A DNA stretch of 60,988 bases, filler included, from Chloroflexota bacterium (GCA_043754535.1; 6 parts of 5 records of this genome joined end to end with filler, not necessarily neighbours in it), one strand, 5' to 3'; shown: positions 1 through 16,566, counted from the whole stretch's first letter. Program-made: numbers and translations. Notes: generated by a model from the sequence alone, not told the origin.

Positions 1-2
1 AG

Positions 3-3000
3 GAAGCTAAGGACGGCATAGCCCCAGGGCAGTGGGTGGGCTACAGCGTGGTGCAGCAGCCCGCCCCCGCCAGCTACAGTTGGTTGCGGGTGGACAGCAG
101 CGGCGATCCCAACCCGCACGTGATAGTTGGCGACCACGAAATCCAGTGGCAGTCCTTGCCCCTGCTCAGTATCGGCCACACCACCTTCGTGCTAACCGCC
201 CCCACGCCCACCCCAACCAACAGCCCGACGGCGAGCAGTACTGCGACCAACACCAGCACTGCCTACCCACCTTACCCGACACAGGTGCCGAACACCCCAC
301 GTCCCAGCCTCACTCCCGCCTCGACGCTGACTCCACGAGGCACGCCACCGCCCGACCCCAGTTGGACGGCGACGGCTACTGAGACGGTGCTACCGACCGA
401 GACGGCGACGGCCACGCCTAGCCTCTACCCCTACCCGACCAACAGCCCCTACCCAACCGAGCCGCCACTGCCAACCAACACGCCCTACCCAACCACCACC
501 CCTTACAACTGCGGTAATGAGTACTGCACCGCCACGCCGACGGTAACTCCCGCCGATTGTGGGGCGACCACTTGCACGCCGACCGCGACCGCCCAGGCCA
601 CTAACACCGCCACGCCAACGGTAGACGCGACTGGCACCTGCATTGCCGCTGGCAACTGCGCTGGTGGCACCGCCACAACGACCCCGAACGCGACTGAGAC
701 CTGCGTTGCCGCTGGTAACTGTGCTGGCACAGCCACGACGACCCCGAACGCGACCCAGACTTGTATTGCCGCTGGTAACTGTGCTGGTGGCACGCCCACG
801 GCAACCCCACCAGGGGGCAACTACAGCGACCACCTCAGCGGCCTCGTCCAACAGCAGAACGGCCAGCCCGTGGCTAACGCCCACCTGCTGATCTTCGCGG
901 TCTTCAGCGGTCAGGCCAGCCCGACCCTGACCAGCCTGGACAGCAGCAGTACGGGTGCCTGGCAGTTCGACATCCCCCGCCCGCAGCCCCCGACCGGCCT
1001 CAGCTTCGATGGCTACCAGGTCTTCCTCCAGCCCTCCTCCACGCTCGCGCCCTTTAGCATCGTTCTCAGCGACAGCACCGCTAGCGAGATCGGCAACAAC
1101 CACAACATGGTTGAGTACCGGCCCACCAGCTTCGGCCAGTCGTACAACAGCCTGGGCAAGACGCTGTTCATCGTAGCCTACGCGAACGCTACTCCAAACG
1201 CCACCCAGACCTGTATCGCGGCGGGCAACTGTGCGGGCGGCACGCCGACGGCAACCCCCAACGCCACCCAAACCTGTATCGCGGCGGGCAACTGTGTGAA
1301 CGGCACCGTTACTTCTACTCCAAACGCCACCCAGACCTGCATCGCGGCAGGTAACTGCTCTGGCACCGCGACCGCCCCTGCGCCCAACCTGACTGCCACC
1401 TGCCAGGCCAACCCAGCCTGCTCCGGCACGGCTACGAGTGTGGCGGCGACCAGCACAGCCTACCCCACCCAGATACCCTATACTCCCTATCCAACCAACA
1501 CGCCCCGCCCGACCAGCACGCCCCAACCCACTGCCGCCGTCGGCCAGGTGCAAGATACCGTTGGTGGCGACGTGCGCACGACCAGCGGCAGCCTGATCAC
1601 CAGCAGCATCACCCTGCAACCACAGAGCGTGATGCGGGTGGCGGGTCAACTGGTCTATACCAACCTGCCCGCCATCCAGTCGGGCGCGGACGGCAAATGG
1701 CAGTTCAGCAACAACCGCTGGCGGATGGACGGACGCAGCCAGTCTTTGACCGCGCTGCTCTCAGCCCAGCAACTAACCGAGGCGGGCAGTTGGGCGGGCT
1801 ACCGCGTGCTGGTTCAGTTGCCCAGTGGCACGGTGGCCTGGGACTTCCAGCCCCTCCAGCCGCCTGCGACGAAAGTCAATGCCTTCACTGGCGATTGGCC
1901 GCTCTCGGCAGCTGACCCTGCTTACGTACAGCCAATGGCCGGTCGCTTCGTCCTCCAGGTGCCGACCACACCAGCCACAGCGCAGGCAACTACCAGCGCA
2001 ACCATCGTGCCGACCACTACCTCGTCTACCCCCGCCAGCCCGACCACCGTGGTCAACGTTACCTACAAGAGCAGCCCCATCGCTGCCCCGACCGAGAACA
2101 TCAATGTGCCTGGCCTGCCTAAAACCGCTCACCAGCCAGGCTCGAACGCCCCGGTCAACACCGAACCAGGCGACACTGGCGGTCTCCCCGCTAGCTTCTG
2201 GCTGATCCTCAGCCTCGGTATGGGAACAATTGCCCTGAGTCTGGCTGTTACCCTCGCTGGCGGTAAGATCATCGCCTTCTTCCACTCTCACTCCTTATCG
2301 GACGGCAAGCCAATGTCTAGCCCAGCCAAGAACAGAACTCCCCGCAGAGGGGTCAAGTCAGCCGTCACTGCTCGCTCGATGGAGGAAATCGAACGCGAGC
2401 GAGCAGTGATGCTTGCGGCCCTGGAGCAGCTTGAAGTCGAAGCTAAAGTGGCCGCTCACCTTCAGGCAATCCAGGCTGAGATTGCGGAGATTGAAGCCAG
2501 GTTCTCGCAGCGGGCAACCCGGCGGGCAGAACTGGCGGCCTCTTACAACTCCCTTACCTATGTGGGATTGCCCCCCGCCGCCAACGAACTGAATGCGGCA
2601 GCCGTACTTCAGCATCTGCTGACCGCAGACACTAGCGCAGACACTAGCGCAGACACTAGTGCAGACACTAGCGTACCGGTTGTTCTACCACCCACAATAG
2701 CACAGGCTACTGCCAGCGAGGCAGCGACCCAGCTTGCCGACCTGAACACTACCCCGCTGGCAGAGTTCGAGTCGTACCTGGCCCGCCTGCCGTTCTCGGC
2801 TCGTCGTTCTAAGTGGCTGCGGCCCCAGCAACGGAATGGACCATTGCTGGGGCGGCAGCAGCCCCGTATGCTAGCCCCTGGCAAAGCCGCCTCCGTCAGC
2901 CTAAGCGACGCAGCACTGGTAGCCCTTGCACCTGCCCCGCTGCCCAGCGATCCACCCCGTGGTGGTGAGGTGCCGTCCTTCCTCCCTCATATCGATCCAC

Positions 3001-4406
3001 GAGCCGTAAGGCCCGCCACTATACCTCTGGTCGCGGACGATCAGCCTCAGCCGCTGGCCGACCAGTTGAGCAGCCAGCCCGCACTACCAACCGGGGCGCA
3101 ATCGCTGGAGAGTAACCTCAAACCCAACAATCCAACCAAGCCACTACTGACCAGCGTCCCTGCTGCTATGGCTACAGGATCACCCGACTATACACATGAG
3201 GCTGCACTACTGCCGCAGTTTAGTACAGCGGCGGCAGTAGTGCAGCCCGTTATAGCTCTGGCTGACACAACCCAACCGACCAGCCTGAGCGGGTCAGGCT
3301 CAGACGTAGGTCAACGAGGTAGGCAGGCTCAGCAATCGTCCCGGCAGCAGCCCCCTCCCCCTGGCCGCGAGGGGCGGCTCCACACCTGGCTGCTAGCCGC
3401 TACCCTGCTAGTTTGCTTGATGATCTGCTCCCTGGCTGGGGGGGTTTACCTCGACACTCACGCAAAGGAGGAAGCGAACACCATGTCAGATAGCCTGGCC
3501 TTCGCTCCCACCGCCACTGCCACCAGCCATTATCCAATATTGGCAACTGCTACCAGTTTCAATCGTGCCTCATCGGTACTGGCTACCGCCACCAGTCTCA
3601 GCTACGCTGCCAGTGCGGTCGCTACCAAACCAGCGGTGCCTACCTCAACCCCGCTGCTATCAGCAGCAAGCGTAGTAGTCGCTTCACCGACCGATCCGCC
3701 TGCTCCCCTCCTCGCAACCACTACGCTTGTTCCTCTGCTCGCCACATCAACCGCCACACCAACCGCTAGCCCCTTGCCTTCGGCCACTGAGCCGAAGGTA
3801 GACCCACCAGCGGTAGTCGCCAATCGGCAGCAGCCGAAACCACAAGCCTCTGCCGTGCCAACCGCCACTGCACCGCCTGAACAAAACAGTGGGGCTGAGG
3901 TTGCTAGCCAGCCCACCCCCGATGACAGTCATAGTGCGGCTCAGGTCACGCACCTGACCATCGCGCCCATCGCCCTGGACAGCGCGGTGGCAGTGGTCAG
4001 CTACCGTCCGGTAATGGGCAAGGACAGCCACGGTGATGCAGTGCAACTGCGAGACAAGAACGGCAATCTACGTTGGAAGTGGTTGACCCACGCTACTCTG
4101 CCAGGGCTACAAACCCCAGGCATCGGCTGCGGCGAGGCGGGCAATATTACGCTATCAGGCCACGATTGGGGTAGCAGCGGCATCTTTGTCAACCTGAAGA
4201 AGATGCAGAAGGGTGACCAGCTTATCTGCCGGGCCGCCGACGGTACCACTGCCACCTACACCTTCTTTGTGGTCAACGAGGATGCGGCCAAGAGCGACTA
4301 CACCATTGACGACCTGCGTCCAGGTGAGCAACGTACTATCACGTTGTACACCTGCAACCGTACTGGCACTGAGCGACGGGTGTTCGTCGCTCGGCTTATC
4401 ATCTAG
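3..4406 (+). CDS. Giant surface protein-sortase fusion (5' partial): Thr/Pro-rich and Cys-repeat ectodomain, LPxT-like signal + TM, cytoplasmic region, second TM, C-terminal sortase domain
   Basis: Frame is open from base 3 to the GTG at 36. C-terminus has the sortase pattern GNITLSGH..IFVNL..MQKGDQL..TITLYTC..ERRVFVA (His/Cys/Arg). LPKTA at 2115-2129 and PGDTG at 2166-2180 precede the hydrophobic FWLILSLGMGTIALSLAVTLAG; second TM is WLLAATLLVCLMICSLAGGVYL. Confidence 0.85.
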   Translation, partial: EAKDGIAPGQWVGYSVVQQPAPASYSWLRVDSSGDPNPHVIVGDHEIQWQSLPLLSIGHTTFVLTAPTPTPTNSPTASSTATNTSTAYPPYPTQVPNTPRPSLTPASTLTPRGTPPPDPSWTATATETVLPTETATATPSLYPYPTNSPYPTEPPLPTNTPYPTTTPYNCGNEYCTATPTVTPADCGATTCTPTATAQATNTATPTVDATGTCIAAGNCAGGTATTTPNATETCVAAGNCAGTATTTPNATQTCIAAGNCAGGTPTATPPGGNYSDHLSGLVQQQNGQPVANAHLLIFAVFSGQASPTLTSLDSSSTGAWQFDIPRPQPPTGLSFDGYQVFLQPSSTLAPFSIVLSDSTASEIGNNHNMVEYRPTSFGQSYNSLGKTLFIVAYANATPNATQTCIAAGNCAGGTPTATPNATQTCIAAGNCVNGTVTSTPNATQTCIAAGNCSGTATAPAPNLTATCQANPACSGTATSVAATSTAYPTQIPYTPYPTNTPRPTSTPQPTAAVGQVQDTVGGDVRTTSGSLITSSITLQPQSVMRVAGQLVYTNLPAIQSGADGKWQFSNNRWRMDGRSQSLTALLSAQQLTEAGSWAGYRVLVQLPSGTVAWDFQPLQPPATKVNAFTGDWPLSAADPAYVQPMAGRFVLQVPTTPATAQATTSATIVPTTTSSTPASPTTVVNVTYKSSPIAAPTENINVPGLPKTAHQPGSNAPVNTEPGDTGGLPASFWLILSLGMGTIALSLAVTLAGGKIIAFFHSHSLSDGKPMSSPAKNRTPRRGVKSAVTARSMEEIERERAVMLAALEQLEVEAKVAAHLQAIQAEIAEIEARFSQRATRRAELAASYNSLTYVGLPPAANELNAAAVLQHLLTADTSADTSADTSADTSVPVVLPPTIAQATASEAATQLADLNTTPLAEFESYLARLPFSARRSKWLRPQQRNGPLLGRQQPRMLAPGKAASVSLSDAALVALAPAPLPSDPPRGGEVPSFLPHIDPRAVRPATIPLVADDQPQPLADQLSSQPALPTGAQSLESNLKPNNPTKPLLTSVPAAMATGSPDYTHEAALLPQFSTAAAVVQPVIALADTTQPTSLSGSGSDVGQRGRQAQQSSRQQPPPPGREGRLHTWLLAATLLVCLMICSLAGGVYLDTHAKEEANTMSDSLAFAPTATATSHYPILATATSFNRASSVLATATSLSYAASAVATKPAVPTSTPLLSAASVVVASPTDPPAPLLATTTLVPLLATSTATPTASPLPSATEPKVDPPAVVANRQQPKPQASAVPTATAPPEQNSGAEVASQPTPDDSHSAAQVTHLTIAPIALDSAVAVVSYRPVMGKDSHGDAVQLRDKNGNLRWKWLTHATLPGLQTPGIGCGEAGNITLSGHDWGSSGIFVNLKKMQKGDQLICRAADGTTATYTFFVVNEDAAKSDYTIDDLRPGEQRTITLYTCNRTGTERRVFVARLII
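627..1430 (+). repeat. Two blocks of ~20-21 aa coding repeats, PNATQTC(I/V)AAGNC(A)GGT (6 copies plus 1 degenerate)
   Basis: Three copies at ~627-812; three copies plus TCQANPAC at ~1197-1430; a non-repetitive domain lies between the blocks. Confidence 0.9.
2625..2672 (+). repeat. 12-bp tandem repeat GCAGACACTAG(C/T) x4, encoding ADTS x4
   Basis: Read directly from the sequence. Confidence 0.95.
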
Positions 4407-4424
4407 CAGATTGGAGTAGGTAGG

Positions 4425-4796
4425 ATGAGCGACCAGCCCACAAAGCAACCAGCACAAGCCCGACCCGCCGACAGCAACGAACTGCGCTCGGCACTGCGGC
4501 ACATCTCGCCGACCGACTTCGCCCAATTCGCTACCCTGTGGCAGCATCAGCATGACGCTGACCTTCAGGAGGCTCTCCTGGCGGAGCAGGAGCAACTTGA
4601 CCAGGAAGATGCAGTAGACCGCGCCCGTCTTGCCCAGCTCGAAGGCTGGCTACTCGACCCTGCTAGCAGGCCAGCAGAGTTGTTCGCTACCCCTCCTGTT
4701 GGGGCCAGCTTATCTTCTTTTCAATCGTCAATCGTCAACCGTCAATTGCCACGCACTTACACTCACAATCGCCGCACATTCCTTACAACCATCTGA
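4425..4796 (+). CDS. Hypothetical protein with coiled-coil character
   Basis: ATG 18 nt after the previous stop, with GGAG upstream; acidic helical segment LQEALLAEQEQLDQED. Confidence 0.65.
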   Translation: MSDQPTKQPAQARPADSNELRSALRHISPTDFAQFATLWQHQHDADLQEALLAEQEQLDQEDAVDRARLAQLEGWLLDPASRPAELFATPPVGASLSSFQSSIVNRQLPRTYTHNRRTFLTTI

Positions 4797-4807
4797 GACA
4801 AACCATC

Positions 4808-5866
4808 ATGAGTAGCCCCCTACCGCCCGACAGCCCGAACCAGAATCGTCCTCTCAGCCCCGCTGAGCGGGAGCGGCTGCGTGACCTCGACCAGCAGATC
4901 GGGGTCTTGGAGGATCAGGAGCGGGCCGTGCTGGCCTGGCTGGACGCGCCACCACCTGCTGAGGTGCGAATGCCGGGGGCGGATGAGGCGATCCTGATCC
5001 CACTACCGGAAGGCGACCTGGGAATGTTGGCCCAGGACAGCAGCCTGCTACGCGTGACGCTGCGGGCCGCTACTCCGCGCACGGCTCAGGAAGTGCGCGA
5101 CGCAGCTGGGGAGCGGGCGCAGGCAGTAGTCGCCCCCTTGCGTGGGCTGTCCGCTCAGATAGCAAAGCTACAAACCTACCGCCGCCAACTGATCGGCGGT
5201 ACCGCCCTGCTGTTCGTGTTGGCAGCGGGCCTCTACCTCTACCGCGTCAACAGTGGGCCGCAAGCAGGCAGCGAGCCACCTACTATCGTAGATTCTGCGC
5301 GGGCGACGCTGGTGGCGGTAGAGCTGACTCCGCTCTCCTCCCCAACGCCGATCCCGACCGTCACCCTACCACCGCCATCACCCACCGCCCTGCACGGCAG
5401 CTACCTGCCGCCCGACAGCATTCGCATCCAGGTAGCAGATGGTAAGCCAGTGGATTTGTACTTGCGGCCCGCCCGCTCGCTGTCGGGCGGCAGGCTGCTG
5501 ATCTACCCACCCGACGGCCAGTACGCCTACCAGTATGGTCCCTACCCACAGGAAGGAGGCAACACCGTAATTCTAGGGCGGTGGGAGGATTGGGGGCCAC
5601 TGCTGGCGATCCTGCGGATCAACGACCGGGTTCCAGTCACGATCCGCACCGCGCAAGACTTGCCGCAGCGTGGCAGCGTCGCCCCTACTCATTTCTACAT
5701 AGTGACTGCCTGTGACCTGCATGGCGAGACCCTCTGCCCGGTCGATCCCGCCTACACCCCCCTGCTTGGTCAATCCCCACAGGGACAATCCATGCTCACC
5801 ATCATCGTTGGTCGAGCAGGCCAAAACTACTACCTGCGAGCGGTCGCCCCCCGCAGTACACCGTAA
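4808..5866 (+). CDS. Membrane-anchored sortase-fold protein lacking the catalytic His/Cys (pseudo-sortase)
   Basis: Coiled-coil N-terminus, TM (LIGGTALLFVLAAGLYLY), Pro/Thr linker, then PDSIRI..YPP..PQEGGNTVILGR..LRINDRV..FYIVT..VDP..MLTIIVG..YYLRA, which follows sortase motif order. Confidence 0.6.
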   Translation: MSSPLPPDSPNQNRPLSPAERERLRDLDQQIGVLEDQERAVLAWLDAPPPAEVRMPGADEAILIPLPEGDLGMLAQDSSLLRVTLRAATPRTAQEVRDAAGERAQAVVAPLRGLSAQIAKLQTYRRQLIGGTALLFVLAAGLYLYRVNSGPQAGSEPPTIVDSARATLVAVELTPLSSPTPIPTVTLPPPSPTALHGSYLPPDSIRIQVADGKPVDLYLRPARSLSGGRLLIYPPDGQYAYQYGPYPQEGGNTVILGRWEDWGPLLAILRINDRVPVTIRTAQDLPQRGSVAPTHFYIVTACDLHGETLCPVDPAYTPLLGQSPQGQSMLTIIVGRAGQNYYLRAVAPRSTP

Positions 5867-5872
5867 AACTAA

Positions 5873-5896
5873 CCCCGCAACAGGCGACCTGCGGGG
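5873..5896 (+). other. Intergenic hairpin directly upstream of the pilin gene
   Basis: CCCCG-caa-CAGG cga CCTG-CGGGG; no U-tract, so possibly an mRNA stability or processing element. Confidence 0.45.
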
Positions 5897-5946
5897 GCAA
5901 CTGCGACCAACATCAACCAACATATAGTCCCTATAGGAGGATTCTC

Positions 5947-6303
5947 ATGTTTGACCGTCTTTTTATTCTCTACAACCTGGCGGTCAGCAGTGCGCTGACC
6001 TTGCTGACCACCAGGCTGCCCCAGGTGTTCGGCGTAGACATCAGCCCTCCGCAACTCCTGCGGAACCTTGGCACCTTTCTGGTTTCGGCGATCACTAACA
6101 ACCTGGTTGGCATCGGGGGGGTAGTGGGCGCACTCGCCGCCGGCGGCATAATTGCGTCAGGTTTCGCTGGTAATCGTGGCCCCCGCGACTACGCCGTTAA
6201 CCTGATCAAGTGGGTGATTATCGGCGTGGTTGCGCTGTCCGCTATTGGCGGCGTGATCACCTTCGCCACCAACGGGATCACGACCGGCACCGCCGGTTCG
6301 TAA
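5947..6303 (+). CDS. VirB2/TrbC-like conjugative pilin
   Basis: 118 aa; strong RBS AGGAGG at 5935-5940; leader followed by two Gly-rich hydrophobic helices separated by a short basic loop (FAGNRGPRDYAVNLIKWVIIG). Confidence 0.65.
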   Translation: MFDRLFILYNLAVSSALTLLTTRLPQVFGVDISPPQLLRNLGTFLVSAITNNLVGIGGVVGALAAGGIIASGFAGNRGPRDYAVNLIKWVIIGVVALSAIGGVITFATNGITTGTAGS

Positions 6304-6340
6304 GTCGGTAGTCCGTTCCGTCCAGAGAGGAAGACCAACT

Positions 6341-7936
6341 ATGCAGCAGCAAGAGACGACGCAAGACAGCAGCCCGGAAGTCAGCAGGCAGGATCGCCGC
6401 GCCGGTCGCCTGTCAACGCTTGGCCTCTTGCTGTTGCTGGCAATACCGTTCGGGGTCAGTGGCTGCCAGAGCTGGCAGGATATCAAGTCCCTACCGACCG
6501 ACCCACTACCCACCGTCCAAATCCAACCTATGACCCCGGTACCTCAAACGCCAGTGGTGGCACCCCTACCGACCTTTGTTACCAACCAGAACTTCCCGAT
6601 CAAACCTGCTCAGGGACAACCGGGTGGACCTGCTGGCTGCTACGACAATACCTCATTCTGGCCGATGCAGTGGCTACGCGACATCGGTGCGTTCTTCCTC
6701 GACAAGATGATGGGCGGGTTGATCTACGGCACCTACGGCCTGTTCAGTCTGGCGGTCAACACTGGCTCCGCCCCAGTTGATCAGCCCGTGGTAATGAAGG
6801 TCTTCATGGTGATGTGTGGGGTAGCCTACGGCCTTGTCACCTTCAGTGGCCTTTGGCTTGTGATCAAGATGTTCGGTCGGGGCTTCGGCTTCGTCCGCAC
6901 CCTTAACCTGGGCCAATATTTCGGCAACCTCATCCTGGTACTGGTGCTGATCCTACCAGTAGGTGATTACCCACTACTCGCCTACGGCGCATCAGTGCCA
7001 GTCACGTTGGCGGGTAAAGCGTTCGTTATCCTGATCAACTCAAGCTCGACCGCTGCTGGTGGGGCCGCCTTCACCGACATGGCGAACCCCTACACCCCAG
7101 CGGGCGGGAGCCTACGGATGAACCCAGCGATCTCCACCGATGGTACTCACCGCGACAACAATCTTGACTGCTCGGTGCTAGACAACCCTATGAAGATCGG
7201 CACCGGCTTTGGGGTGAGCTTCGGCTTCGGCCTGCTGGCACTGGTTTGGATGCTCTACATCCCAATGGTGTTCATTCTGTTCATGATCTCGCCGGTGGCG
7301 TTCGCCCTGCGCTGCTACGAAGAAGCTACTGGGTACTACCAGCAGTGGCAAACAAGTTACTTGCAGTCGGTTGGCAGCATCGTGCCGGTCGGTTTCGTCT
7401 TGCTGGTGGTAGGAGCATTTGTGGGGGCGGTCACCTCCTCCTCCGACCCCTCCGCTATCCTGCTAGCGATCCTGATTACCCTGATCTGCCTGTTCCTGGC
7501 CTTCAAGCTGGCCTGGGGGATGCTCAAGGGGGCAGGGCAGCGAGTGCAGCGATTGGTGTCGCAGCGTAGCGAGATCAGCAAAGAGACGATCAGAGGGGAG
7601 AAAGCACGACTGGCGGTGAGCGGCGGTGAGCAGACCGTCCCCAATTTCAGAGTGGCAGCCCCTAGCCTCAGTCTAGCCAGTCCAGGCAGCGGCGGCAACC
7701 AGTTTGGTCTGCCTCAGCCAATGCAGATGCAGTACGCCAACCAGCCCCAGACCAGTTACCAACTTCCTCCGCTGGAAGCTGGGTCAGGGGGAGTAGCTGG
7801 TTACGGCAATCTGAGCGGAGGTGGTTACGGTATGGCGGCCAGCTACCCCCCGGTTCCAGCCCAGGCAGTAGCTGAGCTGACCCGCAGCCTCAGTCTCGAA
7901 CGGGTGCTGCAAAACCAGCGCGGCCCGCTCTATACC
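6341..7936 (+). CDS. VirB6/TrbL-like polytopic membrane protein (3' partial)
   Basis: Possible lipobox GVSGC, multiple TMs with a central loop, ISPVAFAL..YYQQW motif, Gly/Gln-rich tail; directly follows the pilin-like gene. Confidence 0.55.
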
Positions 7937-8036
7937 NNNNNNNNNNNNNNNNNNNNNNNNNNNNNNNNNNNNNNNNNNNNTTAATTAATTAANNNNNNNN
8001 NNNNNNNNNNNNNNNNNNNNNNNNNNNNNNNNNNNN
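7937..8036. other. Artificial contig spacer
   Basis: 44 N + TTAATTAATTAA (stops in all six frames) + 44 N. Confidence 0.99.
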
Positions 8037-8038
8037 CC

Positions 8039-10588
8039 AGCCCACCTGCCAGAGGCGGCGCACTGGCTTCGCGCCTGGGTGGGCAACCAGCCCCAGCCCC
8101 AGCTAACGACGCGCTTGGTGGACTTGACAGCCTGCGAAGTGGCATCGCCGGGTTCTCAGCCGCCGACTTGCCGCAGACTGGCGAACTGAACGGCTATGTG
8201 GTGCCGCCGCAGCCGGTCGCTAGCCCCTTCCGCCGCGAGGAGGAGGAGAACCGCCACCGCGATAGCGAGTCGTCGGTAGACTGGCTGGCTAGCCTGCGTG
8301 CATCGTCCAGCCTGACAGAAGAAGCAGAGCAGGCTAGCGAGGCGAGCGACAACTGGCTCAATCGGGTGCGCGGAGCGGATAGCTACAACCCGCCACCCAC
8401 AGGCCGCTCGCTCAGCCAGCCACTCGATGCGATACGGCCAACCGCAACCTCGCTCAATGCGCCCCCCAGCCAGCCAGCCGAGGCACAACACGGGGTAGTA
8501 GAACAGCCCAACAGCGGCCAGTCGTTGCCCGACTGGTTCCGCAGCCTGCGCGGTGAGGAAACGGAGCGGCCCGCGCCCACCACCGACAGCATCCCGCCCT
8601 GGCTGGCGGAGCAGCCTGTACCCGCCGCCAGCAACCTCCCGGCCTGGTTGAGCGGGGAGGATGCGCCAGCCACGATTGCGGCTCCTGCACCAACCAGAGC
8701 GGACAGCGACCTGCCACCCTGGTTGCAGGAGGAGGCAGCCAGCCAACCACCCGCTGCCGCCAGCAATCTGCCCTCCTGGTTGAGCGGTGAGGACGTGGAT
8801 ACCGCCCCTGAACCCAGTAGCAACCTGCCCTCCTGGTTGAGCGGCACAACGCCAGAGACAACAACCAGCAGCCCAACCTGGGCTAGCAGCCCCCCACCTG
8901 CGCCTACCCCCGCCCACGATAGCAACCCCGGCCTGCTAGGAGAAGTGGACGCACCCTGGTTGCAGCAACTTGCTGCTCAACCACTGCCCACCCCACCACC
9001 CATAGCAACCCAGCCGCAACGCACTGCTGCCGACTTCTTTCCTGCCAGCGTCTCAACCAACCAGCCGGATGAGATGGCAGAGGAGAACGACGAGATGCCA
9101 CCCTGGTTGCTAGCCGAGGAGCAGGACGAGGCAGCCACCCCCACTAGTCAGAGCTTTGTTCAAGCCGAACCCGACCTGGATGGAGACACGGACGAGGGGG
9201 AGGAGCAAGCTGTAGCTGAGCCGACCGCTGGGCGGAAGAAGGCAACTGGGCTGATCAACGAGGAGGACTTGCCCGCCTGGTTGCGGGCGCAGGTGGCGGA
9301 GCAGGAGCAGGGCCAGGTGCGCTTGCCCCGCTCTGCCAGCCGCGCCAACACTGCCGCTAATCTACGCCCAGAGCAGGGTGAGGGCAGTGGCTACGTGCCG
9401 AACTGGTTGCGGAACCTGGGGACGAGCGACGAGGACGCGACCGCTGCTGCCAACGCTGCAACCGCCGCCGCGACCGCCGCCAGCGACCTGACCGCGACGC
9501 TGGCCCCTGCTATGCCCAAGATCAGCCGCACCATGACGATCCGTAGCCCCCGCACTGGGGCCGCCGAGGCCTTCGCTGCCCTGGTCTCCTCGCCCAGCAG
9601 CGCGACCCTGACCTCCTCTGTGCTGCGCCACGAACCACGCAGGGCAGCCGGGGCGATGCGCTACCTGACGGCAGACCGCCTGATCTACCTGCTTACCCTG
9701 GCCGTGATCATCGCGGCTTATGTGCTAGGCCAGAGTTCGAGTGGTGGCCCGCTCGGTAATATCGCCAAGCCCAACATTGCGCCTGCCGTTAGCAGCTTCT
9801 ACAGCACGATTGAGAACCTGCCCGCTGATGCGCCAGTGCTGGTCGCTTTCGACTGGGATGCCGACCGCCAGGCGGAGTTGCAACCGCTCAGTTACGCTGT
9901 GCTGCGCCACCTGTTTGATCGTCAGCGGCGGGTGACAACCATCAGCCTGTTGCCAGCGGGGGCGGCCTTCGCCCAGCAGGAGTTGCAGCGAGCCGGTAAA
10001 GATTACGATGCAAGCCAGCAGAACACGGGTAAGAAGATCGAGTACCTCAACCTCGGCTACCTGCCAGGCAACGAGATCGGCCTGCGTGGGCTGGCGACTG
10101 GCCCCCTTGCCAACGCTCTAACCGGGCGGGCCGACTTCCAGGGCAACCCTCTGACTGGCAATGCCGCCCTGCGTGGGGTCAACCGCCTGAGCGACTACCG
10201 CCTGATCGTGCTGCTAGAGGGCGACGAAGGGCTAGCCCGCCAGTGGGCCGAGCAACTGAACGCAGCCCGCCTGCAAACCCAGCAGCTAGCCAACGCCAGC
10301 GGCGTGAACCAGGCTACCCAGGTAGTGATCGGTTATAGCCAGGCGGCCCAGGCGACCGTCAATCTCTACTTGAACGGCAGCCGCCCCCTGTTCAACGGCA
10401 ATATCGCGGGCCTACTTGGCACCGATCAGTACGCACTCGCCCTCAACCAGGCGGGCAAGGCTCTGGACAGCCAACTGGGGCGCGAACAACGCTCCAATGT
10501 CCTCTCCTTCGCCCTGATCCTCATCGTCCTCTTGATCATCATCGGCAATATCGTGCTGATTAGCCGCTGGGCCAGCAACCGACGTTAG
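8039..10588 (+). CDS. Membrane protein with acidic PxWL-repeat N-terminus and an extracytoplasmic alpha/beta domain (5' partial)
   Basis: Frame open back to the spacer; about 12 (L/I)PxW(L/F)-type motifs, TM, IENLPADAPVLVAFDW..AELQP..YLNLGYLPG domain, C-terminal TM. Confidence 0.8.
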   Translation, partial: SPPARGGALASRLGGQPAPAPANDALGGLDSLRSGIAGFSAADLPQTGELNGYVVPPQPVASPFRREEEENRHRDSESSVDWLASLRASSSLTEEAEQASEASDNWLNRVRGADSYNPPPTGRSLSQPLDAIRPTATSLNAPPSQPAEAQHGVVEQPNSGQSLPDWFRSLRGEETERPAPTTDSIPPWLAEQPVPAASNLPAWLSGEDAPATIAAPAPTRADSDLPPWLQEEAASQPPAAASNLPSWLSGEDVDTAPEPSSNLPSWLSGTTPETTTSSPTWASSPPPAPTPAHDSNPGLLGEVDAPWLQQLAAQPLPTPPPIATQPQRTAADFFPASVSTNQPDEMAEENDEMPPWLLAEEQDEAATPTSQSFVQAEPDLDGDTDEGEEQAVAEPTAGRKKATGLINEEDLPAWLRAQVAEQEQGQVRLPRSASRANTAANLRPEQGEGSGYVPNWLRNLGTSDEDATAAANAATAAATAASDLTATLAPAMPKISRTMTIRSPRTGAAEAFAALVSSPSSATLTSSVLRHEPRRAAGAMRYLTADRLIYLLTLAVIIAAYVLGQSSSGGPLGNIAKPNIAPAVSSFYSTIENLPADAPVLVAFDWDADRQAELQPLSYAVLRHLFDRQRRVTTISLLPAGAAFAQQELQRAGKDYDASQQNTGKKIEYLNLGYLPGNEIGLRGLATGPLANALTGRADFQGNPLTGNAALRGVNRLSDYRLIVLLEGDEGLARQWAEQLNAARLQTQQLANASGVNQATQVVIGYSQAAQATVNLYLNGSRPLFNGNIAGLLGTDQYALALNQAGKALDSQLGREQRSNVLSFALILIVLLIIIGNIVLISRWASNRR

Positions 10589-10599
10589 GGGGTCTGTCC

Positions 10600-11241
10600 G
10601 TGTCTGTACCATTCATCGTCGCAGCCCTGCTTACCCTGGTAGTTTATAGCTACCTGGTGGGCGACAACCCGGCCTACCGCGCCGCCCAGCATCTCTTTGT
10701 GGGGGTCAGCGTGGGGATCGCCGTGTTGGTGGCCTTCTACAACGTGGTCTGGCCGCAGCTACTCTTTCTCTACCAGCAGAAGGACACCTTCACCATCTTC
10801 ACCAACCCCAGCCTACTGTTCATCTTTCTCAGCCTGATCCTCGGTGTGGTGTTGCTATTCAAGCTAACCCTGCCGCGCAATGCTGCCTCTAACTCGGTGC
10901 TGGGTATCATCCTCGGCACCGGGGCGGCGGTCGCCCTCGCTGGCGCGCTGATCGGCACCCTGATCCCGCAAGCTCTGGCGACGATGGTACCGCTGAACGG
11001 CAACGGCACCATCCCCTCGATCCTGGGCAACGTCGTACTAGTTGTCGGCGTGGTCACCACCCTCTCCTACTTCTACTTCACCGGGCGCAAAGACGGTAGT
11101 CGTGGGCCAGTAGCGCAATACGGCGCAACCGTGGGCCGCTACTTCATCATGATCGCCTTTGGGGCTATCTTCGGCCTGCTCACCGTCTCCTTCTTCGCTG
11201 CTCTTTACGGGCGTATCTTCTTCCTTGCCAACCCAAGCTGA
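10600..11241 (+). CDS. Hypothetical integral membrane protein (~6 TM)
   Basis: YSYLVGDNPAYRAAQHLFVGV and GRYFIMIAFGAIFG; tightly spaced within the operon. Confidence 0.85.
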   Translation: MSVPFIVAALLTLVVYSYLVGDNPAYRAAQHLFVGVSVGIAVLVAFYNVVWPQLLFLYQQKDTFTIFTNPSLLFIFLSLILGVVLLFKLTLPRNAASNSVLGIILGTGAAVALAGALIGTLIPQALATMVPLNGNGTIPSILGNVVLVVGVVTTLSYFYFTGRKDGSRGPVAQYGATVGRYFIMIAFGAIFGLLTVSFFAALYGRIFFLANPS

Positions 11242-11255
11242 CCGAGGCGATACAA

Positions 11256-13367
11256 ATGCTCAACTTTGAAGCACACAACAGCCCACGCATCGAATCGATC
11301 CTCACCGCCGACGTGGGTAGCCTGTGGACGCGCGTGGCCCTCTTTGACGTGGTGGCGGGCGAATACCGCTTCCTTGCCCGTGCCAGTGCGCCGACTACCG
11401 CCGAGCTACCCTTCGGCGATATCACAGTGGGCCTCTACAACGCGATGAGCGAGTTGGAGAAGCTGACGGGGCGGCAACTGGTGGATGAGGGCCATATTCT
11501 GCTGCCAATGACCACCAGCGGCAACGGCGTGGATGCCTTCATTGCCGCCAGCAGCGCAGCCCCCAGTATGCGCGTCGTCTTGCTAGCGATCACTCGCGAC
11601 ATCACAGCCCGCAGTGCGATCCACGCTGCCGAGAGTACATACAGCAACGTGCTTGAGTTGATCACCGTGGACGAGACGACCGCGAAGGGCGACCAGCCAG
11701 AGGCCGAGGGTGATTGGTTCGTGCGCCAGGTGCGCCGCATGATAGCCCTGCAACCAGAGGCGGCGATCATCGTCGGTGGGGTGGATGGTGGGCCGGTCGC
11801 ACCGCTGATCAAGCTGGCGAACGTGGTAGCTGCTGCCGCCCAGGATCGCAACAACCGCGCCCAACTGGTGAATGCCCGCCAGGACCAGCTACCGGTCGTC
11901 TACGCTGGCAACCAGAGCGCGCGCGGCAAGGTATTGGAGACGCTGGAGACGATCACTGACCTGCGCCTGATCGACAACATCCGCCCTCGGCTCGACCGCG
12001 AACGGCTCGGCCCAGCCCAAGAGCAATTGGATAGCCTCTACATCAAGAGCCAGCTTGACCACGTAGCTGGCTATCAACGGTTGAGTAGCTGGACGGAGAC
12101 GATCATGCCAACAGCACTGGCGACTGGGATCGTCACGCGCTACGTGGCTGGGCAGTACAAGCGCGACGTGCTGACGGTAGACATTGGCGCGTCGTCGGTC
12201 AGTGCCTTCCTGACCAATAGTGCCACCTCAGACGTGGAGGATCGGCCAGCGGGCCAGACCCAGTCTAGCTTCTATCGGGTGGTAAGGGGCGACTTCGGTC
12301 TCAGCTACGGCCTGCCCAACCTGCTGCGCGAAGTGGGGGTGGCGGCGATCAACCGCTGGCTGCCCTTCGAGATCGGTGAGGAGGAGTTGAGCGAGTGGGC
12401 CTTGAACCGAATGCTGCGCCCGCTTACCATCAGCCAGACCCGCCGCGAGTTGCAGCTGGAACACGCCTTCGCCCGCGAGGGGATGCGCTACCTTGCCCGC
12501 CGCCTGCGCGAACAGGCACCGGATGGCCGCCCCAGCTATGACTTGCTGATCGGCACTGGCGGCGTACTGGCTCATGCACCCAGCCTGGCGGCGGCGGCCC
12601 TGCTGATGCTGGACGGCTTGGAGCCGGAGGGTCTGCCCGCTGGTTCGGTGGAGTTGGCAGTAGACGGCACCATGATCCTACCCCACATCGGGGTGATGGC
12701 TGCCGTCAGCCCCGCTGCCGCTGCCTACATCTTCGACCGCGACAGCCTGCTCTGGCTCGGCACTGCGGTGGTGCCGCTGCCAGCCGTCGCGCATCCCAGC
12801 CCTGGTCAGCCCGCCGTCACCGTCACCGTCACCTACGCCGATGGCAGCGAACCGCTCAAGGCAGAGGTGGCTTACGGCGAAATCCGCCTAATCCCCCTGC
12901 GCCTCGATCAGCGGGCTAGCCTGGCGGTGCAGCCTGGTAAGGACTTCCGCATCGGCAGCGGCGAGCGCGGCAAGCTGGTACGCACCATGGGCGATGACGT
13001 GAAGGGCGGCTACGTCGGGCTGATCGTGGATGCGCGGGGGCGACCGCTGCACCTGCCTGGGGACGTGCAGGGCAGGCAGGCGACTATGCGCCGCTGGCAG
13101 CAAGCTCTTGGCATTGTTGCCCCAGAACCGACCACCCGCCAGCCAACTGGTACCCTGCGCCCGCCTGGTGCGCCCGACCAGACCCTACCGCCCCTCGCCA
13201 CTCGCCTCAACCTCAACCCAGAGGATGAGCAGGCAGCAGAGGAGACTAGCTTCGATTTTGGCACTGGCAGCAGCGGCAATGGTGCCGGCGACGTGATCGC
13301 TAACCGCTTGAGCCAAATGAGCCACCCACCTACCAACCCGGATGAGGGGAGAAAGAAACGCCGATGA
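11256..13367 (+). CDS. GlmL/MutL (glutamate mutase L)-family actin-like ATPase, long form
   Basis: ASKHA-like motifs ADVGSLWT and VDIGASS, plus ASSAA, GGVDGG, NIRP, IGTGGVL and C-terminal GLIVDARGRP. Confidence 0.75.
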   Translation: MLNFEAHNSPRIESILTADVGSLWTRVALFDVVAGEYRFLARASAPTTAELPFGDITVGLYNAMSELEKLTGRQLVDEGHILLPMTTSGNGVDAFIAASSAAPSMRVVLLAITRDITARSAIHAAESTYSNVLELITVDETTAKGDQPEAEGDWFVRQVRRMIALQPEAAIIVGGVDGGPVAPLIKLANVVAAAAQDRNNRAQLVNARQDQLPVVYAGNQSARGKVLETLETITDLRLIDNIRPRLDRERLGPAQEQLDSLYIKSQLDHVAGYQRLSSWTETIMPTALATGIVTRYVAGQYKRDVLTVDIGASSVSAFLTNSATSDVEDRPAGQTQSSFYRVVRGDFGLSYGLPNLLREVGVAAINRWLPFEIGEEELSEWALNRMLRPLTISQTRRELQLEHAFAREGMRYLARRLREQAPDGRPSYDLLIGTGGVLAHAPSLAAAALLMLDGLEPEGLPAGSVELAVDGTMILPHIGVMAAVSPAAAAYIFDRDSLLWLGTAVVPLPAVAHPSPGQPAVTVTVTYADGSEPLKAEVAYGEIRLIPLRLDQRASLAVQPGKDFRIGSGERGKLVRTMGDDVKGGYVGLIVDARGRPLHLPGDVQGRQATMRRWQQALGIVAPEPTTRQPTGTLRPPGAPDQTLPPLATRLNLNPEDEQAAEETSFDFGTGSSGNGAGDVIANRLSQMSHPPTNPDEGRKKRR

Positions 13368-14617
13368 GCTTCTACTACCCAACTAAGCAGCCACCGATCT
13401 CGCTGACTACCCTGGTGCGCGTCGAACGCCGCCTGCCGTTGGCGGGCGAAGTGACGGTGCGCGTCGGCACGCGGGTAGACCCTGGCGACATCGTAGCTCG
13501 CACCCTGATCCCTGGGCAGAAGCTGGTGCTTGACCTGGCTAGAGAACTGGGTGTTAAGCCGAAGGAGGTGGCGAAGCTGCTGCGGCGCAAGGAGGGCGAG
13601 CAGATCGAGCCAGGCGAAGTGATCGCCGGGCGGCGTGGCATCGGCGGCAAGCAGATCAAGTCGCCCGTTTCTGCCGAACTGAGTGGCGTGGACACTGGCA
13701 CGGGCAGCGTCACCCTCACCCCAATGGGCGAGATGTTCGAGCTTGATGCACACCTCAAAGGCATTGTGATGGAGGTCTTCCCCCTACAAGGGGTTAGCGT
13801 GGAGACCCCCGCCGCAGTTGTGCGTGGCTTGTGGGGCATGGGTGGCGACCGCTATGGCGTACTCAAGCTGCTCGTTACTGGGGCGGATGAGCCGCTGACC
13901 GCCGATCTGGTGGATGCGAAGGCTACCTACGCCGTGGTCGTAGGCGGGGCAGCAGTGACGGCGGACGCGCTGAAGCGATGCATTGACAACCGCGTGCGCG
14001 GGGTGATCGTTGGCAGCATGGCCCTGAGCGAACTTCGCAATTTCCTGCTTGACTACTACACGCCAGAGGCGTACATGGCCGCCAGCGATCTGCTAGATTG
14101 GCCGCTGGGCAGGCTGGGCTGGCAGTTCCCGCCCGTGCCGCTCTTTCCAGAGCGCGCGCCGCTGGACCGTCGTGGCTCGGCGGCGCGCCAGTTGCCAGGG
14201 CAGGCCCAGCAACCGCTAGCCCTCCCCTTCACCCTGATCGTCACCGAGGGCTTCGGCCAGATGCCGATGTCCAACCGCGCCTTCGACCTGCTAGCCGCCG
14301 CCGACGGCCAGGAGGTGACGATCAGCGGCACTACCCGCCTGCGTGGTGGCCTCGCCCGGCCAGAGGTGATCATCCCCTTGCCGCGCAGCAGCGTGCAGGG
14401 CCGCGACCTGAGCGACAGCCAGACGGCACCGGCGATCCACATTGGCAGCACAGTGCGCCTGATCGCTGCCCCTTATATTGGCGGCATTGCGAAGGTGACG
14501 GCCTTGCCAGGCGCACCCCGCCCGCTACCGAGCGGCCTCACCGCTCGTGTCGCCGAGGTAGCTCTCGACAACGACCGCCTGCTGATCCCCATCTTCGACC
14601 TTGAGGTGCTGGACTAA
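13364..14617 (+). CDS. Hypothetical protein with barrel-sandwich-hybrid-like repeats and a C-terminal KOW-like motif
   Basis: ATGA overlap with the previous gene; GEVTVRVGTRVDPGDIVA, EGEQIEPGEVIA..IKSPVSAEL, TEGFG, IGSTVRLIAAPYIGGIAKV. Confidence 0.75.
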   Translation: MSFYYPTKQPPISLTTLVRVERRLPLAGEVTVRVGTRVDPGDIVARTLIPGQKLVLDLARELGVKPKEVAKLLRRKEGEQIEPGEVIAGRRGIGGKQIKSPVSAELSGVDTGTGSVTLTPMGEMFELDAHLKGIVMEVFPLQGVSVETPAAVVRGLWGMGGDRYGVLKLLVTGADEPLTADLVDAKATYAVVVGGAAVTADALKRCIDNRVRGVIVGSMALSELRNFLLDYYTPEAYMAASDLLDWPLGRLGWQFPPVPLFPERAPLDRRGSAARQLPGQAQQPLALPFTLIVTEGFGQMPMSNRAFDLLAAADGQEVTISGTTRLRGGLARPEVIIPLPRSSVQGRDLSDSQTAPAIHIGSTVRLIAAPYIGGIAKVTALPGAPRPLPSGLTARVAEVALDNDRLLIPIFDLEVLD

Positions 14618-14640
14618 GCAGCATACTTGGGGATAGCGAA

Positions 14641-14668
14641 AGGCCCGCTGGATTGCTCCGGCGGGCCT
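14641..14668. terminator. Hairpin between convergent genes, likely terminator
   Basis: AGGCCCGCTGGA-ttgc-TCCGGCGGGCCT. Confidence 0.7.
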
Positions 14669-14733
14669 GCTTGTTGCGTGGGTTGGGGTGGGGGAAGCGA
14701 CTAATCGCAGCCCCGCCCTTCGCCCAACAGAGC

Positions 14734-16566
14734 TTACTTGCTGAACCAGTCGGGCTGGCTGTCGCTGAAGCTGTTCTGCACGATAGGTACCAGTTCGCTG
14801 TTGTCAGCGCGGGCGCGGAACAGTTGCAGGCGGCCACTCGTCCCCTGCTCGCGGGCGTAGGCGATGCGCCCACCGTCGCTGCTGAAGGCCGGATCCCAGT
14901 CATTGCTGCTATTGTTGGTCAACCGCTGGTTGTTGCTGCCGTCAACCTTGACCAGGTAGAGTTCCAGACCGGCTGCGCTACCATCTGGCCCACCAACGTA
15001 GATGATGCGGCTGCCCTGCGGCGACCAGCGCGGTAGGATATTGGCATTGCCGATGCCGGGGTTGGTTACACGGCGCACGTTGGTGCCGTCGGCATTCATC
15101 ACGTAGATGCTCTTGGCCCCATCGCGGTTGCTGACGAAGGCGATCTGGGTCGCGTCGGGCGACCAACTGGGGTCAGCGTCGAAGCTGGTGTTGCCAGTCA
15201 GCCGCACTGGGTCGGCCCCCACAAAGATGTCGGTGCTGAAGATTTCCTCTGCGCCATAAGCCTCCTCGAAGCCGATGAAGGCGATCTTCTGGCCGTCGGG
15301 CGACCAGGATGGCTTGCTCTGGCGACCAGGGTAGTTGTTGTTGAGCAGGATCGGGTTGCTGCCGTCCTTGTTCATGATGTACAGCTTGAACTCGCCGCTG
15401 CGGTTGCTGATGAAGGCAATCTTGCTGCCGTCAGGCGACCAAACCGGGTCTTTGTTGACACTGTTATCGTTGGTCAGGTTGACGCGGCTGCTACCAGTCG
15501 GCTTCATGGCGTAGACCTGCGACTTGGTGGTGTCGGTGTACTGGTTGGAGGTGAACACGATCACGCCAGCCAGTGGCCCCGGCTGCGGGGTAGCTGTCGG
15601 CTGTGCGCCAGCAGTCGCGGTTGGGCTGGCAGCGGGCGTGCCTGGCACGGGGGTGTTGACGACCGGGGTGCTTGCGCCGATCAGTTGGTACCGCCACTTG
15701 TAGTAGTGTTGGCCGATGTTGCCCATCTCAACCTTGAAGCCGGGTGGGTTGGCGGGGACGTAGGTGAGGACGCGTCGCTCGTAAAGCTGGATCATCACGT
15801 CCAGGCCGCTGACCCCAGCGATCTTGACCTTCGTCCAGTACGGCTCGCTGATCGGCAGGCCGCTGGCGTAGAACCAGGGGTCATTTAGCCGCTCTGATTG
15901 GCCGCCGCCCCCGACAGGGCCGCTCGCGTTGAGGAAGTTCCACATCACTTCGGGGATGTTGTGCCTGGTGGTGGTGTCGAAGTAGACATTGCGGGTGCCA
16001 GGCAGGTTGGCCTTGTTCTGGTCGAGGCCGAGGCCACCAAAGCGGTCAATAGTGTCAATCACGTTCTGGCCGCGCCGATCAGCAGCCGGGCCAGTAAAGC
16101 TGGTGAAGGTGGCATAGGTGGGCGCGCCTGCGTCGTCCGGGTCGCCCGAAACCGGGATTTCAGCCGGGCTGTACTGCTGGAAGGTGTTGTCGCCCAGTTG
16201 CAGCTTGCCGCTGACAAGCTCAGTGGTAAGCAGGCCGTTGGTGACATAGAACTTGCTGTTGCGATCCGCGTTGGGGTTGTTGATCTCCATGCGGCTCTTG
16301 TCGAAGTATTGTACCAGGTGCTGGCCGTTGACCCCCTGGGCGTATGGCTCGTAGAGGCCCGCTGTGTTGGGCTGCGGCCCCCAATACCAGCTACGGGTAG
16401 CACTGCCGTTCTGCACAGGCAGGTCAGTGCGCTGCCACACGCTGTAGAAGGCAGGGTCGGCAAAGCCGGTCTGTGCGGCGGCGGGGCTGATGTTGCTGAG
16501 GATACCGAGGATCATCAGCAGGGCGATTGCGCTGGCCGCCAGCTTGCGGCGGTTGTTCTTGTACAT
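14734..16566 (-). CDS. Secreted protein: N-terminal FADPAF/QYFDKSR domain, PT linker, TolB-like PD40 beta-propeller
   Basis: RBS AAAGGAG before ATG 16566; signal peptide ending AAA-Q; repeated P.WSPDG..IAF motifs. Confidence 0.85.
   Translation of the reverse strand: MYKNNRRKLAASAIALLMILGILSNISPAAAQTGFADPAFYSVWQRTDLPVQNGSATRSWYWGPQPNTAGLYEPYAQGVNGQHLVQYFDKSRMEINNPNADRNSKFYVTNGLLTTELVSGKLQLGDNTFQQYSPAEIPVSGDPDDAGAPTYATFTSFTGPAADRRGQNVIDTIDRFGGLGLDQNKANLPGTRNVYFDTTTRHNIPEVMWNFLNASGPVGGGGQSERLNDPWFYASGLPISEPYWTKVKIAGVSGLDVMIQLYERRVLTYVPANPPGFKVEMGNIGQHYYKWRYQLIGASTPVVNTPVPGTPAASPTATAGAQPTATPQPGPLAGVIVFTSNQYTDTTKSQVYAMKPTGSSRVNLTNDNSVNKDPVWSPDGSKIAFISNRSGEFKLYIMNKDGSNPILLNNNYPGRQSKPSWSPDGQKIAFIGFEEAYGAEEIFSTDIFVGADPVRLTGNTSFDADPSWSPDATQIAFVSNRDGAKSIYVMNADGTNVRRVTNPGIGNANILPRWSPQGSRIIYVGGPDGSAAGLELYLVKVDGSNNQRLTNNSSNDWDPAFSSDGGRIAYAREQGTSGRLQLFRARADNSELVPIVQNSFSDSQPDWFSK

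Follow-up and report, generated by a model that had tools for sequence, protein, structure and literature searches.

We analysed a DNA window of 60,988 bases from an uncultured Chloroflexia bacterium, at the start of which lie five genes that probably make up the envelope-side part of a type IV secretion system (T4SS) for conjugation. The window is not one stretch of a genome; it was joined by linkers from six stretches of five contigs (C121, C122, C123, both ends of C124, and C127) of a metagenome-assembled genome (MAG; 3.87 Mb, 132 contigs, 88.9% complete). Positions 1-7936 are the entire contig C121 (7.9 kb), which is interrupted within genes at both ends. It carries five open reading frames (ORFs) on the plus strand with intergenic gaps of 18, 11, 80 and 37 bp (Table 1), in agreement with the first-pass annotation of this DNA, which had reported five co-oriented, closely spaced genes. 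Position 7936 is the end of the contig and not of the last gene, whose full product has 929 amino acids; the genes after position 8037 belong to another contig, C122, which itself starts within a gene.

Table 1. Features of contig C121, and the linkers of the window
Feature	Position	Strand	Details
Giant proline/threonine (P/T)-rich surface protein fused to sortase	3..4406	+	1467 residues seen, 5' open; N-terminus lost at contig start
LPKTA, candidate sorting motif	2115..2129	+	residues 705-709, 24 residues before TM1
First transmembrane segment (TM1) of the fusion	2202..2258	+	residues ~734-752, Kyte-Doolittle window
Second transmembrane segment (TM2) of the fusion	3390..3446	+	residues ~1130-1148, Kyte-Doolittle; predicted membrane anchor of the sortase part
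Sortase catalytic domain of the fusion	4128..4397	+	Pfam match, residues 1376-1465
Acidic soluble protein	4425..4796	+	123 residues; no transmembrane segment
Pseudo-sortase	4808..5866	+	352 residues; sortase-fold domain without catalytic His and Cys
VirB2/TrbC-like propilin candidate	5947..6303	+	118 residues
VirB6/TrbL-like polytopic lipoprotein	6341..7936	+	first 532 of 929 residues, 3' cut
Artificial linkers (N runs around TTAATTAATTAA)	7937-8036, 31647-31746, 39439-39538, 45992-46091, 53650-53749		adjacency across linkers is artificial, not biology

The fourth gene encodes a small protein with an N-terminal hydrophobic leader followed by two hydrophobic helices, i.e. two transmembrane (TM) segments, with a basic loop between them, and it lies beside the gene for the VirB6-like protein. 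A feature search of the ESM Atlas placed it closest to a TrbC/VirB2 cluster (PF04956 in 98% of the members, score 0.91, 185 shared features), with T4SS_pilin and CagC among the other top clusters, a language-model likeness that is to be taken as a lead only. The product of the fifth gene carries a lipobox with Cys42, about six TM segments after the signal (seven hydrophobic segments, the first being the N-terminal lipoprotein-type signal) and a long disordered tail encoded past the contig end. When 1.84 billion representative proteins were searched with HMMER only seven reached E ≤ 0.001 for this gene, one of them 100% identical and 929 residues long. As the direct evidence for the VirB2 and VirB6 families is weak, it is the homologous loci that decide the question.

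To find such loci we searched 400 other genomes of the same class with a profile built from the polytopic family (A2). It matched a genome of the same genus (G001) and 4 of the 16 genomes of a family here called f11, in nine loci and with E-values from 4e-10 to 1e-6, the f11 proteins being 620-955 residues long. One more match, in G005, was weak, covered the N-terminal signal region only and was judged spurious. We compared eight f11 loci, five of which have an upstream flank and seven enough downstream flank. In all five of the former the gene order is sortase-like, pilin, VirB6-like, VirB3-like, and tblastn recovered the sortase-like gene in each of them (E 3e-12 to 2e-15); in four f11 loci it also recovered a VirB3-like ORF directly upstream of VirB4 (E 3e-8 to 2e-5). 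VirB4 and an M23 peptidase gene, both recovered by tblastn, then follow in all seven loci that reach far enough downstream. Pfam assigned TrbC/VirB2 at or above the cut-off to three of four scanned pilin genes, TrbL/VirB6 (PF04610) to five of five polytopic proteins, CagE_TrbE_VirB to four of five and M23 to four of four, and SSB was found in three loci. The 118-residue protein of C121 is encoded in the same position as the Pfam TrbC/VirB2 genes in 5/5 f11 loci.

These results bear on what the first-pass annotation had proposed for both genes. Its VirB6/TrbL assignment holds indirectly, by way of the A2 profile, the f11 proteins and their PF04610 matches, with a direct Pfam match absent. Its VirB2-type pilin is supported by position, by the ESM Atlas and by the TrbC matches in f11, and found no backing in direct profile matches or profile-profile alignment (see below). 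The f11 loci display VirB2 and VirB6 similarity together with linkage to VirB4 and to a type IV coupling protein (T4CP), so that the outcome named beforehand as refuting the first-pass annotation did not arise, and, judged by these matches, the cassette on C121 is a divergent relative of the f11 T4SS core.

Two f11 loci could be extended downstream, and both contain a T4CP gene (PF10412, PF12696) followed by two Replic_Relax genes; in one of them (L084, G475, 5022-17747) a large serine recombinase and cargo were found as well. T4CP, Replic_Relax and serine recombinase together make the f11 loci resemble integrative and conjugative elements (ICEs). Besides a PIN/Phd toxin-antitoxin pair, the cargo of L084 includes a TIR-domain protein and an entire type I restriction-modification system.

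The continuation of the C121 locus is provided by an independently assembled metagenome contig of 9.5 kb (L028), which carries the same genes and reaches 2.2 kb further. The four genes downstream of the fusion are 100% identical on the two contigs. After the gene for the 929-residue protein L028 encodes a protein with two TM segments (~122-171 residues), a 411-residue M23 protein and a 96-residue protein that again has two TM segments. The first of these has no Pfam match, and in the ESM Atlas it comes closest to the PrgI family (PF12666 in 91% of the members, score 0.90, 200 shared features), which makes it VirB3/PrgI-like. The 411-residue protein has an M23 peptidase domain (PF01551, E 5e-10) in addition to a TM segment and a P/T linker, and it is homologous to the M23 proteins of f11. 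At the end of L028 (9376-9513, minus strand) we noticed the C-terminus of a TnpB/IS605-OrfB-like protein, identified by eye from its 'NADLNGARNI' motif; this gene probably explains why the assembly breaks here.

In the same-genus genome G001 the cassette consists of a pseudo-sortase, a small protein with two TM segments, a 562-residue polytopic protein, a VirB3-like protein and an M23 protein. Four of these genes are recognised by BLAST, with identities to the window organism of 33% (pseudo-sortase), 23-24% (VirB6-like), 30% (VirB3-like) and 47% (M23). The cassette order thus recurs in G001 and in 5/5 f11 loci, and a synteny search across Chloroflexota had been suggested at the outset as a check of the locus.

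The third gene had been annotated as a sortase-fold protein; the fold is supported by orthologues near the Pfam threshold and by weak Foldseek matches, an active enzyme is not. Its product is predicted to have a cytoplasmic N-terminal part, one TM segment (residues 127-145), a proline-rich linker and a C-terminal sortase-fold domain. No direct Pfam match was obtained for it, BLASTP detected no similarity to the active sortase domain encoded by the first gene, and a word-based homologue search returned only the protein itself. Its G001 orthologue (E 1e-17) and one f11 member score 27.3 and 26.8 bits, respectively, against PF04203, i.e. just above the cut-off of 26.6 bits. At the catalytic positions the 352-residue protein has Arg in place of His and Gly in place of Cys. 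Both residues are lost in 7/7 T4SS-linked members, His being replaced by R, Q, N or T and Cys by G, Y, T, S or N, and both are kept in the two true sortases that were aligned with them. From these alignments we conclude that the conserved first gene of this type of T4SS encodes a predicted membrane-anchored, catalytically dead pseudo-sortase.

Between the fusion and the pseudo-sortase lies the gene for the 123-residue acidic protein, which matches no family in Pfam or NCBIfam and for which tblastn found no counterpart in the eight f11 loci. A Glu/Arg-rich motif, E-R-x-R-A-V/L-L-A-W/A-L, is loosely common to window positions 4425-4796, 4808-5000 and ~2500-2700, recognised by eye only; these stretches belong to the 123-residue protein, to the N-terminus of the pseudo-sortase, predicted to be cytoplasmic, and to the fusion's cytoplasmic part, and the motif may represent a shared docking helix.

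For the product of the first gene we predict an exported P/T-rich passenger, the LPKTA motif, TM1, a cytoplasmic stretch of ~375 residues, TM2, a P/T-rich linker and the sortase domain, in this order. The passenger contains seven Cys-pair repeats (C.A..NC) between residues 213 and 473, and TM1 is followed by the basic stretch KNRTPRRGVK; the ~375 residues between the TM segments are rich in Ala, Glu, Gln, Arg, Leu and Lys and appear helical or coiled by eye only. The C-terminal sortase domain noted in the first-pass annotation is confirmed by a PF04203 match with E 1.1e-12 and 48.3 bits (cut-off 26.6). Aligned to the housekeeping sortase of the MAG, it keeps His1387 (SGHDW), Cys1451 (LYTC) and the Arg in RRVFVAR (1458-1464), an intact catalytic triad. 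All NCBIfam class models, including that of class E (NF033747, E 7e-7), remained under their cut-offs and do not resolve its class. The succession of LPKTA, TM1 and basic stretch resembles a sorting signal, after which comes a sortase anchored in the membrane. On L028 the fusion frame is likewise open, with 99.9% identity, i.e. one difference in 864 residues.

We have seen the adhesin-sortase fusion only in this organism. The G001 contig stops before the position of the fusion, and the genes upstream of the f11 clusters, where Pfam names them, are unrelated and lie on the opposite strand. A homologue search with fusion residues 1150-1467 returned nothing, probably because words from the P/T-rich part swamped it, and is uninformative on other fusions. 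Neither a Cna-B domain nor an LPxTG subunit of pilin type with a pilin motif was found on C121. The rest of the genome fits a sortase-competent cell wall, as it encodes a housekeeping sortase on contig C62 (L065, 1-4794; 332 residues, PF04203, E 2.9e-27) and at least 12 canonical substrates with a C-terminal LP[RTPQ]T[GN] close to a TM segment. The housekeeping sortase gene adjoins genes for an S41 peptidase and an SLH-domain protein, and an LPRTG substrate is encoded on the same contig.

A search of the MAG for VirB4, coupling protein and relaxase, also suggested at the outset, yielded candidates on other contigs. C55 (L029, 13.3 kb, all genes on the plus strand) encodes a 934-residue VirB4-like protein (NF045971, E 2.4e-43; NF045975, E 1.3e-25) and a 3'-cut T4CP-like ATPase (TIGR03743, E 7e-8). 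A second VirB4 on C80 (3.6 kb) is 37-39% identical to that of C55 and somewhat nearer to the f11 VirB4s. On C87 (10.5 kb) a T4CP paralogue, 58% identical to the one of C55, lies beside a Replic_Relax gene (45.1 bits) and what looks by eye like a ParB-like gene. In the MAG the families PF12846 and PF03135, as well as PF02534 and PF12696, which had no match at all, missed the divergent VirB4 and T4CP proteins, and NCBIfam models found them instead; matches to PF01935 turned out to be HerA-like proteins, FtsK, the C55 ATPase and an ABC transporter. Sequence searches of the PDB with both T4CP-like proteins were uninformative, a VirB4 search of the genome-contig collection returned only one contig of 7.5 kb, profile A3 had no match in the genome-contig or viral-contig collections, and P0008 had none in viral contigs.

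C55 (1-13302) comprises eleven co-oriented genes around VirB4, most of them orphans. Among the products are a 351-residue P-loop protein resembling VirB4 in the latter's C-terminal portion, a 297-residue bitopic protein that might be VirB8-like and a member of the YdjM family. The T4CP of this contig appears split into a membrane part of 403 residues and an ATPase with at least 520 residues.

We then compared the Chloroflexia clusters with known systems. In pCF10 a surface adhesin is encoded upstream of the channel genes. With the conjugative T4SSs of Gram-positive bacteria (pCF10 prg/pcf, pIP501 and the Tn916/CD1110 type; mating-pair formation types MPF-FATA/FA) they share a VirB4 of the CD1110/Mbov_0397 type, VirB6-like and PrgI/VirB3-like proteins, a cell-wall hydrolase, SSB, T4CP and, in the window organism, a presumed surface adhesin encoded ahead of the channel genes. 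In contrast to those systems, they contain a TrbC/VirB2-family gene, start with a conserved dead sortase and use an M23 enzyme as hydrolase; moreover, a VirB8-like protein was not recognised here, and VirB4 lies outside the cassette in this genus. According to passages in a 2025 review (PMC12857230) and in a genomic survey of the same year (PMC12102498), Gram-positive T4SS classes lack VirB2 homologues, with Patescibacteria as the exception, and Patescibacteria, or Candidate Phyla Radiation (CPR), are placed as a sister lineage to Chloroflexota. The available part of PMC12102498 further describes the patescibacterial clusters as mostly without relaxases and thought to be co-opted for other functions, and the CPR T4SSs as chromosomal and often near dnaA. 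Patescibacterial and Chloroflexia systems both combine monoderm-type VirB3-, VirB4- and VirB6-like proteins with VirB2-like pilins. The f11 clusters differ in carrying T4CP, Replic_Relax and recombinase genes and a single pilin gene instead of an array, and a sortase-like gene, which the Chloroflexia clusters have, is not mentioned in the accessible portion of PMC12102498.

Conjugation loci with a sortase of their own have precedents, so that in this point the arrangement is less unlike characterised systems than the first-pass annotation had assumed; the dead sortase, the fusion and the VirB2-family gene remain unusual. The tcp locus on the Clostridium perfringens plasmid pCW3 (SrtD) and pCS1 (srtB) likewise couple conjugation genes with a dedicated sortase and wall-anchored adhesins. 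In the accessible text of the review PMC8225981, citing Revitt-Mills 2021, SrtD is required for efficient pCW3 transfer, and in that of PMC5770547 inactivation of srtB had little effect on the transfer of pCS1-1 of C. sordellii. In those plasmids, however, the sortase is separate and active and acts on separate LPxTG proteins, whereas in the present locus the conserved sortase is dead and the other one forms a single chain with its presumed substrate. Similarly, the fusion shares with class C sortase-assembled pili the His-Cys-Arg triad and an exported substrate with LPxT-type motif, TM segment and basic tail, but substrate and enzyme form one polypeptide, LPxTG pilin subunits are missing from the contig, and the neighbours are T4SS genes.

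The closest direct NCBIfam matches of the 118- and 532-residue proteins, and the only ones, are to families of the Mycoplasma ICE, namely NF045849 (Mbov_0395, pilin-like; E 0.02) and NF045848 (MMCAP2_0566; E 0.0023), and a VirB4 of the MAG matches NF045975. The order of genes for a small pilin-like protein (Mbov_0395), a polytopic TM protein (Mbov_0396/MMCAP2_0566) and VirB4 (Mbov_0397) is also alike. Both matches of the window proteins nevertheless lie far under the cut-offs, and the Chloroflexia proteins are two to three times longer and have a lipobox and a long disordered tail. In open-access papers and preprints we found no report of a dead sortase as T4SS component, of a substrate-sortase fusion or of a conjugative T4SS of Chloroflexota, whose conjugative elements are scarcely present in the literature searched.

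Taken together, we consider it likely that C121 holds the envelope-side module of a lineage-specific conjugative T4SS of the Gram-positive type (VirB4 CD1110/FATA-like) that resides on ICE-like elements in the class Chloroflexia. The locus would be a monoderm-type conjugative T4SS that is unusual in its VirB2-family gene, its conserved pseudo-sortase and, in this organism, its adhesin-sortase fusion. In such an apparatus the VirB6-like and VirB3-like proteins would form the membrane channel, the M23 enzyme would open the wall, and the VirB2-like protein might form a short pilus or line the channel. The pseudo-sortase could be a subunit without catalysis that binds partners or provides a scaffold on the outer face of the membrane, and the fused sortase may cut its own polypeptide at LPKTA and thereby attach the passenger, as a mating adhesin, to the wall. 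ATPases would be supplied in trans by the VirB4 and T4CP genes on other contigs of the MAG.

Several observations weigh against this reading. On the side of the membrane proteins, neither the 118-residue nor the 532-residue protein has a Pfam match at E ≤ 0.01, their scores against the Mycoplasma ICE families are sub-threshold as given above, and none of six other members of the polytopic family matches NF045848 or NF045889 at E ≤ 0.1. In hhalign the 118-residue pair reached a probability of 0.4% with the Pfam-positive f11 pilins and of 0.2% with the small proteins of family A5. The AlphaFold2 (AF2) model of the VirB6-like domain, with a predicted local distance difference test (pLDDT) score of 45.6, was unusable and was not searched. 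For the pseudo-sortase the AF2 model was weak (pLDDT 54.5) and 34 of the 36 Foldseek rows listed were sortases (best E 0.017), to which we give little weight because the underlying alignment contained two true sortases and may have been biased. As to the fusion, the Pfam search revealed no adhesin domain in it, and its LPKTA motif is internal, with a 24-residue spacer and ~700 further residues after it, unlike the canonical C-terminal, shorter-spaced signals; both the self-processing at this motif and the adhesin function are what we infer. The middle part of the fusion and its sortase domain have no tblastn match in the f11 loci. The contig itself shows no deviation in GC content (0.622 vs 0.614), and no integrase is encoded on it.

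Further points concern the missing ATPase and DNA-processing genes. In each of the two species of the genus (L028; G001 contig L003) there is a 4-nt overlap between the VirB3-like and M23 frames, which means that VirB4 is truly absent from its usual place there. Linkage of C55, C80 and C87 to C121 is unproven, and a MAG bin can mix elements. The genes of C55 are 64-89% identical to counterparts on L030 (presumably G001), compared with 23-47% for the cassette, so that the two may be different elements. Moreover, a search of the MAG, at the completeness given above, for the classical relaxase families PF03432, PF02486 and PF08751 yielded nothing. The ICE or mating-pair system that the first-pass annotation had proposed is supported by the f11 loci, with VirB4 in 7/7 and T4CP plus Replic_Relax in 2/2, and not by the genes next to the cassette in the window organism, where VirB4 is elsewhere; the MAG provides two VirB4, two T4CP-like proteins and one Replic_Relax and no classical relaxase.

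The same gaps could be read as signs of a T4SS-derived relic or a repurposed surface apparatus that mediates adhesion, cell-cell contact or pilus display instead of DNA transfer. That VirB4 is missing between VirB3-like and M23 in both congeners and present in 7/7 f11 loci speaks for it, as do the strong divergence of the cassette between the congeners, the fusion as an addition seen only here, the lack of classical relaxase families and the presumed co-option of patescibacterial T4SSs (available part of PMC12102498). Against this stand the intact frames and operon-like arrangement in two species and the two VirB4, two T4CP-like and one Replic_Relax genes on short contigs of the MAG that look like mobile genetic elements, and VirB4 could come from another locus; we judge this alternative distinctly unlikely. 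Far less probable is an ordinary Gram-positive sortase-assembled pilus or adhesin locus unrelated to T4SSs, in which the membrane proteins play an accessory part. It would accord with the proximity of an active sortase domain, a sortase-fold protein and a large P/T-rich surface protein, and with the lack of a direct significant VirB2 or VirB6 family match, but the homology of four cassette genes to genes flanking VirB4 in f11, in clusters that carry Pfam TrbC, TrbL and CagE_TrbE_VirB, largely refutes it. In addition, no Cna-B domain or pilin-motif LPxTG subunit was found on the contig, and the second sortase-fold protein, without Cys and His, cannot catalyse polymerisation.

An assembly or binning artefact, with a chimeric fusion ORF or gene order, might be suspected in a short MAG contig cut at both ends, the more so as the sister contig ends in a TnpB-like gene, a kind of repeat that breaks assemblies. 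The recurrence of the same order and open fusion frame on the separately assembled L028, and of the cassette order in G001 and five f11 loci, makes this hardly credible. Within the conjugative T4SS that we favour, a bolder version is rather unlikely to hold. It pictures a hybrid mating apparatus of Chloroflexia ICEs in which a VirB2-type pilus, a structure believed to be missing from wall-bearing monoderm systems, would stand on a VirB6 platform and the dead sortase, as an adaptor, would hold the pilin or an LPxT-bearing partner or lead it through the wall; in this genus an adhesin-sortase that cleaves itself at LPKTA would in addition be fixed to the wall or pilus, and the whole might be related to the T4SS with pilins that is essential in Patescibacteria.

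Related membrane proteins also occur in other Chloroflexota families. The window polytopic family (A2) aligned with a related family of ~290-residue proteins (A4) in hhalign with a probability of 96.6% (E 6e-10), and 3 of 11 A4 members match NF045848 (best E 4.5e-7). The A4 loci (L009-L023, L024, L063, L064) show a conserved trio of genes, consisting of a gene for an ~88-residue protein with two TM segments (10 of 11 loci), the gene for the ~290-residue membrane protein and, in each of four loci inspected, a gene for M23, SSB or both. VirB4 homologues are present in 78 of 400 sampled genomes of the phylum, a tally that includes G213, G312 and G384, flagged as unpublished, and they are near-universal in some families (12/12, 14/17 and 5/5). 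Such a pattern is reminiscent of a chromosomal T4SS like that of Patescibacteria. The distance to VirB4 is 11-18 kb, within one contig, in the three genomes inspected, and because housekeeping or Tad-like genes intervene where the genes between were scanned (G248, G177) the A4 loci were not used as evidence for linkage.

The contig that follows C121 in the window does not continue it. A join of C121 to C122 was rejected because the tail of the 929-residue protein does not match the C122 start, and no contig-end overlap linking C121 was found at k = 21-127. The co-oriented C122 cluster (window 8037-14617) is so far without explanation and not part of the T4SS finding. It encodes a 5'-cut protein of at least 849 residues with many P-x-W-L repeats and two TM segments, a 213-residue polytopic protein, a 703-residue MutL/GlmL-type protein with an actin fold (PF13941, E 2e-74) and then a 417-residue protein without a family.

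Chloroflexota use sortases and are placed as the sister phylum of Patescibacteria, and the occurrence there of Pfam-level TrbC/VirB2 beside VirB6 bears on the origin of the patescibacterial pilin-T4SS. The hybrid apparatus, if true, would provide two firsts, a fusion of a sortase with its substrate and a secretion machine with a sortase as non-catalytic subunit. The conserved dead sortase encoded by the first gene of these clusters is a candidate for a new T4SS subunit, and a substrate-sortase fusion would be a new way of coupling surface display to a mobile element.

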